A stretch of DNA of 64,000 nucleotides from Candidatus Omnitrophota bacterium (lineage in GTDB: Bacteria; Omnitrophota; Gorgyraeia; Gygaellales; Profunditerraquicolaceae), in the NCBI GenBank assembly GCA_041649115.1, contig JBAZNT010000006.1, positions 1,301-65,300 on the forward strand, in the 5' to 3' direction. Below the pieces are notes generated by a model. It was not told the DNA's origin, made no database searches, and was given only the letters and a program-made list of their open reading frames with translations. Each line of letters opens with the position of its first letter. The first letter of the stretch is position 1. Both the position numbers and the translations under genes were made by a program. Below, in pieces: positions 63,127 to 63,845 of the stretch.

Positions 63127-63199
63127 GGGCCACTAGCTCATCTGGTAGAGCACCACCCTTTTAAGGTGGGTGTGCCGCGTTCGAGTCGCGGGTGGCTCA
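63127..63199 (+). tRNA. tRNA-Lys (anticodon TTT)
   Basis: 73-nt cloverleaf folded by hand. Acceptor GGGCCAC/GTGGCTC, anticodon loop CTTTTAA, T-arm CCGCG-TTCGAGT-CGCGG. No encoded CCA. Confidence 0.9.
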
Positions 63200-63326
63200 C
63201 TGAATTATTTCCCAAAACGAGAACGCCAAGAGGGTGCGGGGGAAGCGATTCCCGCCGCGCTTTCGGGGTAACAGCGAGGCGAAGACGAGCGCCATAGGGG
63301 CAGAGCCCCTTTGGGGAGCGAAGCGA

Positions 63327-63361
63327 CGCGTTCGAGTCGCGGGTGGCTCACTGAACTATTT
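63327..63361 (+). repeat. second copy of the tRNA-Lys T-arm/3' acceptor strand plus 11-nt flank
   Basis: 35 nt matching 63176-63210 with one mismatch, at an offset of 151 bp. Confidence 0.9.
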
Positions 63362-63381
63362 TAATATTCTGCCTCTTTAAA

Positions 63382-63463
63382 GGGCGGATGGCGGAATTGG
63401 CAGACGCGATAGCCTTAGGAGCTATTGGGGTAACCCTTGGAGGTTCAAATCCTCTTCCGCCCA
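63382..63463 (+). tRNA. tRNA-Leu (anticodon TAG)
   Basis: 82-nt class II tRNA. Acceptor GGGCGGA/TCCGCCC, anticodon loop CTTAGGA, long variable arm, T-loop TTCAAAT. Confidence 0.9.
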
Positions 63464-63538
63464 TTAAAAGAAATAAACATCAGCGAACGATTCGGTATGC
63501 GGCGCTTATTGGGTTACGCCGGCAGGCCGTTAGATATT

Positions 63539-63615
63539 GCGGGAGTAGCTCAGCTGGCTAGAGCGCAACCTTGCCAAGGTTGATGTCGCGGGTTCAAATC
63601 CCGTCTCCCGCTCCA
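63539..63615 (+). tRNA. tRNA-Gly (anticodon GCC), CCA encoded
   Basis: Acceptor GCGGGAG/CTCCCGC, anticodon loop TTGCCAA, T-loop TTCAAAT, 3' TCCA. Confidence 0.9.
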
Positions 63616-63763
63616 GATTTTAGAGAATATAGGGATTTGAACAAAAGAGGAGTTTGAGGGGAAAAGATGATTTTCCCCTCAAGAATAACATCTGTGTTAA
63701 AGCTGCGGGGTGACAGGAAGGAGTGAAACGACTGACGTCATAAGGGGCAGGGAGCCCCTATGA

Positions 63764-63791
63764 CGGGTTCAAATCCCGTCTCCCGCTCCAG
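63764..63791 (+). repeat. second copy of the tRNA-Gly T-arm/3' acceptor strand with CCA
   Basis: 28/28 nt identical to 63589-63616, at an offset of 175 bp. Confidence 0.9.
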
Positions 63792-63845
63792 CACAAAATA
63801 ATAAAAACCTTACCCTAAAAAGCCACGAGAAAAGGAGAACCGGTT

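Follow-up and report, generated by a model that had tools for sequence, protein, structure and literature searches.

Two tRNA genes near the end of a 64,000-nucleotide stretch of Candidatus Omnitrophota DNA (contig JBAZNT010000006.1, positions 1,301 to 65,300; hereafter the window, numbered from its first base) are each followed by a short insert that closes with a second copy of the gene's own 3′ part. Both inserts belong to a family of small, structured modules, undescribed to date and encoding no protein, that sit at the ends of stable-RNA genes in Omnitrophota. The anatomy of the module, its family, structure and host range, and its presence/absence polymorphism are demonstrated below. Judged from sequence, it may be a minimal integrative module, non-autonomous and co-transcribed with its host gene, for which the repeated 3′ segment serves as the site of recombination, a reading that we hold with moderate confidence.

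Anatomy of the two inserts

The genes at the end of the window run rpsB, tsf, pyrH, frr, tRNA-Lys(UUU), tRNA-Leu(UAG), tRNA-Gly(GCC) and a phosphotransferase system (PTS) EIIA-like gene. The encoded Frr is 100% identical to a protein that NCBI assigns to a Candidatus Omnitrophota metagenome-assembled genome. As a preliminary description of this DNA had stated, the 3′ half of tRNA-Lys at 63176-63210 recurs at 63327-63361 (34/35 nt match) and that of tRNA-Gly at 63589-63616 recurs at 63764-63791 (28/28 nt match). The motif GGGGTRACAG, which had been reported in both inserts, occurs nowhere else in the 64 kb than at 63265 and 63707 (expected 0.15), and the GGGGC hairpin said to lie ahead of each duplicated part is present in both. 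The proposed homology of the inserts was borne out by a covariance model from other copies, which matched the window exactly twice, both times on the + strand (63634-63769, 108.8 bits; 63206-63320, 28.5 bits). The features are as follows (DR, direct repeat; B', antisense segment; P2 and P4, hairpins).

63127..63200, + strand: host gene 1, tRNA-Lys(UUU), intact (ARAGORN; Rfam tRNA 56.7 bits)
63176..63210, + strand: DR1-Lys, the upstream repeat copy, which completes tRNA-Lys; T-arm, acceptor 3′ strand and ~10 nt of trailer (CTGAATTATTT)
63211..63227, + strand: B'-Lys, the antisense segment (CCCAAAACGAGAACGCC), which repeats the T-arm imperfectly in inverted orientation
63228..63326, + strand: Lys-type module core (nhmmer E = 1e-27; covariance model R1 28.5 bits; fold z-score -3.45), with the P2 hairpin at ~63232-63262, GGGGTAACAG at 63265-63274, the P4 hairpin CCATAGGGGC-AGA-GCCCCTTTGG at 63292-63314 and GGGGAGCGAAGCGA at 63313-63326
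63327..63361, + strand: DR2-Lys, the downstream direct repeat, an orphan tRNA-Lys 3′ part with trailer
63539..63615, + strand: host gene 2, tRNA-Gly(GCC), intact, CCA encoded (ARAGORN; Rfam 68.8 bits)
63589..63616, + strand: DR1-Gly, comprising the T-arm from CGGG, the acceptor 3′ strand, CCA and G (repeat search)
63617..63631, + strand: AT-rich trailer between DR1-Gly and the antisense segment (read from the sequence)
63632..63642, + strand: B'-Gly, GGGATTTGAAC, the perfect reverse complement of GTTCAAATCCC in both repeat copies (inverted-repeat search)
63643..63763, + strand: G-type module core (covariance model R1 108.8 bits, E = 4.5e-29; fold z-score -4.80), with AAAAGAGGAG, the P2 hairpin TTTGAGGGGAAAA-GATGA-TTTTCCCCTCAAG at 63653-63683, GGGGTGACAG at 63707-63716 and the P4 hairpin at 63736-63765
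63764..63791, + strand: DR2-Gly, an orphan tRNA-Gly 3′ part just upstream of a ptsN-like gene that starts at 63847 (repeat search)
63382-63463: tRNA-Leu(UAG) (ARAGORN/Rfam)

At the start of each insert, the opening bases of the duplicated part are repeated in inverted orientation, a feature absent from the preliminary description. In the Gly insert this segment is a perfect complement, and the minimum free energy fold of the insert is closed by the B'-Gly helix. In the Lys insert the core of the segment, ACGAGAAC (63217-63224), lies opposite GTTCGAGT with a tandem G·A/A·G mismatch; ACGAGAAC is kept in six Lys-type copies and reads AGGAGAAC in a seventh (L124), and the flanking 2-3 nt track each species' T-stem. 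Both inserts fold better than shuffled sequence (z-scores of -3.45 for Lys and -4.80 for Gly). ARAGORN and Rfam recognised three true tRNAs only in the window and no tRNA-like domain in the inserts; an Rfam match to tmRNA at 13.2 bits spans the T-arm alone. A scan of 62900-64000 for sigma-70 consensus promoters found none, and the single terminator-like match in that interval is the P2 palindrome read on the minus strand.

A stretch of the Leu-Gly spacer (63487-63529) had been counted as a relative of the module. The model gave no match there, and the stretch carries a different hairpin motif that occupies the same position in relatives. This small hairpin, GCGGCGCTTATTGGGTTACGCCGGC at 63497-63524, lies upstream of tRNA-Gly and is common to L011, L034 and L130 at the same position (GGCGCTTATTGGAnTTGCGCC). 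Since the covariance model has no match to it, it is probably a leader motif separate from the module.

A structured family on tRNA and 5S rRNA genes

A pattern scan of one metagenome for G-type modules yielded 39 loci, and covariance model R1, built from 27 cores and then run over 696 kb, detected 47 distinct sense-strand copies, two of them in the window. The module adjoins tRNA genes well beyond this locus: of the 39 metagenome copies, 24 lie directly beside a tRNA gene on the same strand, where 1.7% would be expected (P about 1e-32), and the hosts comprise at least 12 tRNA isoacceptors plus 5S rRNA. Copies of what we call class A share one order, namely a host gene ending in B-C, a trailer, B', the core M, and a second B-C with or without trailer. 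In these, B' measures 8-13 nt, M ~100-170 nt and the direct repeat, which may extend over the trailer and even a terminator, 20-49 nt, for a total of 150-250 bp. M contains two conserved hairpins plus the motifs GGGGTRACAG and GGGGAGCGA, and variable GC-rich hairpins are inserted at two positions of the core. Class A modules were found on tRNA-Asp, -Leu-CAA, -Leu-GAG, -Phe, -Asn, -Gly, -Thr, -Met, -Ser and -Lys, on an intron-containing tRNA, on an Arg-like orphan and on 5S rRNA (L094, L120). With the Gly core of the window, the L095 copy shares 92% identity and the L104 copy 80%; the closest match of the window's Gly copy (92%) is a copy on an Arg-like host.

The fold of the core is conserved across these copies. 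A plain MAFFT alignment misaligned P4; with an alignment cut to the core, RNAalifold gave a usable result. In a model-based alignment of 41 copies, 97.8% of cells were paired and 12 of 23 pairs had changed on both sides, across 74 cells, figures that lean toward structure because related sequences were used and were aligned by fitting to the model. In 500 shuffles such pairing and covariation values were never attained, and slid controls were at most 77% paired. Compensatory changes, which the preliminary description had named as a check on the module, were thus found with a covariance model in 12 of the 23 pairs. The P2 hairpin contains 492 Watson-Crick, 37 G·U and 1 A·C pairs; the 37 G·U pairs against a single A·C argue for folding of the sense strand, as RNA or single-stranded DNA, and not for a double-stranded palindrome. 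In a scan of all column pairs for additional long-range pairs, the subfamily signal dominated and nothing reliable emerged.

The duplicated part does have a conserved pairing partner, namely the antisense segment at the module's 5′ edge. B' complements the opening nucleotides of the downstream repeat, hence the host too, and differs with the host: GGATTTGAAC for Asp, Gly and Ala, GGACTTGAAC for Met, GAGTCGAAC for Leu-CAA, CCCACGCC for Phe (at the variable loop and T-stem) and GACCTACTCTCCC for 5S rRNA. For the T-loop TTCGAGT of Lys and Asn, B' is always ACGAGAA, which is not the perfect complement and places a tandem G·A/A·G in the helix in more than 12 copies; the flanks of ACGAGAA follow each species' T-stem. 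On 5S rRNA, the L094 copy has a G·U pair in its B:B' helix, and the antisense of the L120 copy also covers the trailer, in the upstream copy only. At L093, B' matches the host copy only.

Two further arrangements were observed. In class B the module precedes a tRNA gene that is itself complete (Leu, Gly, Met, Val, Glu or Phe), its end at a constant 87-93 nt before the gene; it has its own stem of 13-15 bp with compensatory changes, and promoter-like TATAGCGAACGAC motifs. About ten orphan copies follow protein genes and are bracketed by tRNA-Asn-like 3′ pieces and terminators.

At class B loci (for example L100 2960-3047, L096 12881-12968 and L010 5313-5400), a conserved block of ~90 nt, GAGATAAGCAATAGATA...TTTACTTG...ATAGAATAAGCTnTAGCGAACGAC, lies directly before the mature 5′ end of several of the tRNAs. 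It may be read as TTACTT, 17 nt, TATAGC and GAACGAC, in which case transcription would start at or near position +1 of the tRNA.

Rfam 15, searched in gathering and E-value modes with the window and 17 loci, returned nothing beyond tRNA, rRNA and group I introns, and no match to the Rfam family rtT. This agrees with the earlier remark that the arrangement is not a described element, and no description of it was found in the searchable full-text literature. Pattern scans of IMG/VR viral contigs found no module copy, only chance or unrelated matches (a terminator hairpin, G-rich DNA and a terminase gene), none of which was convincing when scored with the module model.

The Lys-Leu-Gly array downstream of frr is conserved in ~40 species-level Omnitrophota genomes, with spacers of 12 to >600 nt. 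Besides the window, a Lys-type unit occupies the same site in L005, L021, L025, L035, L039 and the L124 lineage, the last of which (six contigs) is the closest relative at 87-88% Frr identity. The distribution is patchy, ~7 of 41 species carrying the unit at the Lys site. In six of the seven Lys-type copies the downstream repeat is that of the species' own tRNA-Lys; in L005 it is one base off. Lys-type cores are 75-92% identical to one another (aligned columns, gaps excluded), 81-92% between the window and the six other species, and this identity does not track that of Frr. The window and L025 share 92% in the core and 79% in Frr, and L025 and L005 share 75% in the core and 88% in Frr. Neutral intergenic DNA should no longer align at such divergence, so the core is presumably constrained or recently spread.

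A precise empty site, another check that had been named at the outset, was found in L001, a different assembly with an identical Frr. L001 is without exactly the 151-nt Lys unit (63211 to 63361, equivalently 63176-63326) and keeps the Gly unit. The two sequences are 99.4% identical (99.17% over 1574 nt upstream of the indel, 100% over 674 nt downstream), and the sole repeat copy in L001 is the trailer variant of the window's downstream repeat (CTGAACTATTT). Since a 35-nt repeat cannot collapse at k = 141, the indel appears to be a real strain-level polymorphism. Copy-number polymorphism of small units also exists in this array among relatives.

Recombination, RNA function and competing explanations

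Several loci bear signs of recombination. At L092, modules are nested in the order antiPhe, M, 3′ part of tRNA Z with CCA, trailer, antiZ, M, 3′ part of Phe, and the M copies are identical; a circle of repeat, B' and M recombining with a resident M would be expected to give this product. At L104 the repeat takes in the trailer, B' and the initial 8 nt of M as well, forming a partial tandem, and L105 holds a tandem pair of units. Within one sample, copies hosted by Phe, Ala and Gly show 94-100% identity to each other, and the two Gly copies from different genomes show 80%; either transposition within the genome or gene conversion would fit the identity within a sample.

From these arrangements we infer the recombination route. 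The unit B-C-trailer-B'-M would act as a minimal integrative cassette, using the 3′ segment that it shares with the resident gene to recombine with that gene in the style of Campbell integration. The incoming copy would complete the tRNA, the original 3′ end would become the orphan, and recombination between the repeats would remove the unit precisely. Being without a recombinase, the module would rely on host or trans-acting functions. The unit would be transcribed with its host, and M is predicted to fold on the sense strand. The conserved sequences of the T-loop (GTTC) and variable loop (AGGTC) may supply microhomology for host switching, and a template-switch mutation could re-make B', since template switching in replication creates perfect hairpin arms (PMC8794818). 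Among the explanations offered in the preliminary description, an integrase-less element akin to cis-mobilizable elements (CIMEs) came closest to the evidence, which includes the empty site, the host range, the nested and tandem copies, and the lack of coding capacity or a linked recombinase. The module is at most a candidate member of the CIME class, as no parent element or integrase was found.

The search for protein partners was negative throughout. Clustering of open reading frames (ORFs) around the 39 loci revealed no recurrent neighbouring protein, only syntenic housekeeping genes. No integrase was found within +/-5 kb of those loci; Pfam identified no integrase, transposase or reverse transcriptase among the 40 ORFs of the window; and no TnpA or RAYT was seen near the 39 loci or in the window. 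Elsewhere in the window, 52239-53633 encodes a beta-CASP/RMMBL metallo-beta-lactamase protein of RNase J or CPSF type, a candidate RNA-processing enzyme.

A number of observations weigh against an integrative module. No recombinase, circular form or parent element was found in the window, the loci or IMG/VR, and a double-stranded circle of 150-250 bp is physically awkward. The L001 empty site could equally reflect loss through repeat recombination; the nearest outgroup, L124, carries the unit, so a new insertion is not directly seen. The identity of copies within a sample could be due to gene conversion and not to transposition. Campbell recombination leaves unexplained how B' and the repeat were re-made for T-loop, variable-loop and 5S rRNA hosts. 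Class B modules have no host repeat and look like a gene or a regulatory unit, orphan copies keep a modified 3′ piece despite having no adjacent host gene, and the G·U bias together with the conserved tandem G·A points to selection at the RNA level.

These last observations fit the main rival possibility, which we rate as rather unlikely but one to be taken seriously, that M is a resident functional noncoding RNA of stable-RNA operons. It would be a processing, stabilising or regulatory domain transcribed with or beside tRNAs and 5S rRNA, with B' and the repeat forming a closing helix and a tRNA-like or 5S-like 3′ end, and it would spread by ordinary recombination only. Consistent with this are the sense-strand-specific folding of P2 and the covarying hairpins, the ACGAGAA opposite TTCGAGT with its tandem G·A conserved in more than 12 copies, and the G·U in the L094 B:B' helix. 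The promoter-like motifs of class B, its own compensated stem and its fixed distance of 87-93 nt to the next tRNA point the same way, as do the downstream-repeat changes of L093 and the orphan copies, which preserve a hairpin and 3′ tail, and the core identity of 75-92% across species whose Frr is just 69-88% identical. Such an RNA is harder to reconcile with a Lys copy that is dispensable in the near-identical strain L001 and carried by only ~7 of 41 species at its site, and no Rfam family match or nameable function speaks for it. Moreover, nesting, tandem copies and exact identity of repeat and host are predictions of a recombining element. The integrative module and a functional RNA are not mutually exclusive. 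A mobile element that homes to stable-RNA genes by base pairing is a more speculative proposal, which we regard as improbable: B' would be a re-programmable guide to the tRNA or 5S 3′ region, and integration through a single-stranded DNA or RNA intermediate, with a trans-acting enzyme duplicating the target 3′ end, would let the essential gene survive.

The remaining explanations fare worse. The preliminary description had suggested that the 3′ arm of the GGGGC hairpin (GAGCCCC and CAGGGAG) pairs with the duplicated acceptor 3′ strand, giving an acceptor/T-arm minihelix on which RNase P or the CCA-adding enzyme could act. Both enzymes are known to accept minihelices, and 6 of 7 pairs can form in the window, L025 and L021. 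This pairing showed no covariation, however: the seven Lys-type copies form 6, 5, 6, 5, 4, 4 and 6 of 7 pairs (just 4 in L035 and L005), and the variable acceptor position is never compensated, with GTGGCTC, GAGGCTC, GCGGCTC and GTGGCCC all opposite an unchanged CCCC. The pairing would also compete with the covarying P4 hairpin, and many G-type downstream repeats are without the T-stem 5′ strand, so that no T-arm is possible. As a functional product in the proposed form the minihelix is thus unsupported, and we think it highly improbable. Slightly less so, and still very doubtful, is an origin of the inserts as attP-arm remnants of decayed integrase-bearing islands or prophages at tRNA 3′ ends. 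Direct repeats of a tRNA 3′ end are the classic footprint of tyrosine integrases (PMC5704250), and the repeated AGGGGA-like motifs in M could be protein-binding sites; yet independent decay would not leave the same covarying core of 100-170 nt at >15 host genes including 5S rRNA, and neither the 47 copies nor the IMG/VR pattern scans revealed a larger integrase-bearing relative or a viral module copy, respectively. Tandem duplication, which the preliminary description had also raised, or unequal crossing-over of tRNA genes could have left the inserts as neutral scars. Such scars have a precedent in E. coli tyrT and in the copy-number polymorphism of small units in the relatives' array. We reject them as scarcely credible, since the insert is not local spacer and is a conserved module common to unrelated hosts in many genomes, with a core far better conserved than neutral intergenic DNA at this divergence and no match to Rfam rtT. 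Also considered and dropped were hammerhead, twister and other known ribozymes (no motif or Rfam match), a split or permuted tRNA, a T-box, a retron, homing of a CRISPR-associated transposon, an IS110 bridge RNA (no long repeat is expected there) and a casposon-like target duplication (no terminal inverted repeats).

The tRNA arrays of these genomes also harbor small elements of other kinds, and the Lys-Leu-Gly array is a general sink for small repeats. Group I introns occupy the anticodon loop of tRNA-Lys(UUU) and other tRNAs in L010 (4735-5010), L021 (2812-3070), L037, L113, L114, L115 and L122. ARAGORN missed the intron-split tRNAs; those of L113, L114, L115 and L122 scored 68-88 bits with Rfam Intron_gpI, and those of L010, L021 and L037 were recognised by reading. 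Putative homing-endonuclease-like ORFs lie inside the array in L021 (1811-2803, flanked by a direct repeat of the leader and the tRNA-Lys 5′ half), L117 (within the tRNA-Met anticodon loop), L010 (5520-5990) and L124 (3500-3975). In L010 and L124 an ORF of ~155 aa fills the Leu-Gly spacer as far as the beginning of tRNA-Gly.

Orphan tRNA 3′ halves with inserts of 60-75 nt that split the T-loop just past GTTC were seen in L003 (4717-4893), L017 (4709-4876 and 4959-5251) and L040 (4889-5010). These inserts start with TCCCG(C/A)C and end with GCGGGA, and represent a second family of small elements linked to tRNA fragments. Upstream of tRNA-Lys, units of 63-68 nt consist of the first 13 nt of the tRNA, a loop, the reverse complement of those 13 nt and a 16-nt leader, and are thus the 5′-end counterpart of the theme of a direct plus an antisense copy. 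They occur at L130 (3072-3139), L131 (3072-3207), L029 (4572-4924), L009, L013 and L017; L130 has one and L131 two, with identical Frr, and L029 has four. A palindromic element of ~190 nt with the ends TAACCTGTGG...CCACAGGTTA occupies the Lys-Leu spacers of L005 (4870-5040), L011 (4650-4830) and L025 (4800-4980), with shorter forms in L008 and L010, and GGGTCTATAGTCTATAG-type palindromes are present in L003, L004 and L021.

Implications and comparison with known systems

If this account is true, the module is widespread at the tRNA and 5S rRNA loci of a major uncultivated phylum and has hitherto escaped notice. It would account for orphan tRNA halves and highly variable tRNA spacers in these genomes, and would be a natural marker for strain-level variation. 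The covariance model lets annotators mask or flag copies, a need shown by a spurious ARAGORN call of tRNA-Ser(GGA) at L124 3218-3306, across a Lys-type module and its downstream repeat. The question raised is how a gene-less unit of 150-250 nt gains, for each host RNA, a copy of its end plus an antisense; the answer may lie in a system of guide-dependent integration or in RNAs of a new class that are attached to stable RNAs.

Closest in kind are integrative elements at tRNA sites and CIMEs, from which the module departs in size, in single-target specificity and in having no known partner that we could find. Like CIMEs and like IMEs (integrative and mobilizable elements), it inserts at the 3′ part of a tRNA gene, which the flanking direct repeat restores (PMC5704250). 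The CIME-like traits extend to the absence of recombination genes inside the module, a precise empty site in a close strain, and att-like flanking repeats of the tRNA 3′ end, which are 35 and 28 nt long in the window and measure 22-49 nt elsewhere. Unlike those elements, which span kilobases, the module measures 150-250 bp, has no parent element or integrase that was found, and contains an antisense copy of the repeat start and a covarying core that folds on the sense strand. It also breaks with the rule of one target per integrase family, a single module family occurring on at least 12 tRNAs plus 5S rRNA. For the host-specific antisense segment, the 5S rRNA host and the promoter-proximal variant, no described counterpart was found.

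The E. coli tyrT locus contains 178-bp repeats, each ending in the last 19 nt of tRNA-Tyr. Its distal repeats and rtT RNA (RF00391) resemble the module in that the unit behind the tRNA gene closes with a duplicate of that gene's own 3′ end, and the tyrT unit is co-transcribed with the tRNA. Unlike tyrT, a single locus of local tandem duplication, the module is common to many hosts and genomes and has no Rfam match.

Integron attC sites and CTX phage attP(+) resemble the module in their inverted cores around a structured centre and their strand-specific folding, and the (G)TTC of the T-loop, where one subfamily has its junction, brings to mind the G/TT crossover point. However, B' GGATTTGAAC and B GTTCAAATCC do not fit the RYYYAAC/GTTRRRY consensus. 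Where attC is a single imperfect palindrome, M consists of separate hairpins, and the junction of other subfamilies falls at the variable loop or within 5S rRNA. Palindrome-associated transposable elements (PATEs) of the IS200/IS605 group and the repetitive extragenic palindromes with their transposases (REP/RAYT) are likewise small, noncoding, hairpin-rich and strand-specific, and IS608 recognises its target through base pairing with a guide inside the element. Those elements have no long target duplication and guides of 4-5 nt, and a PATE of the IS200/IS605 type has subterminal hairpins and inserts 3′ of a target of 4-5 nt, whereas the module has, in class A, a repeat of 20-49 nt and an antisense of 8-13 nt. 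A miniature inverted-repeat transposable element has terminal inverted repeats and a duplication of 2-10 bp; the module, in contrast, has one B'/B arm inside a repeat of 20-49 nt and no short duplication outside it.

Template-switch hairpins (PMC8794818) offer a way to form B', a perfect antisense of a nearby B, in a single step, but as a mutational mechanism they give no account of the conserved core or the direct repeat. GOLLD and ROOL, which match the module neither in sequence nor by model, are much larger and carry no host 3′-end duplication; like the module, they are structured RNAs of obscure function that tend to adjoin tRNA genes.

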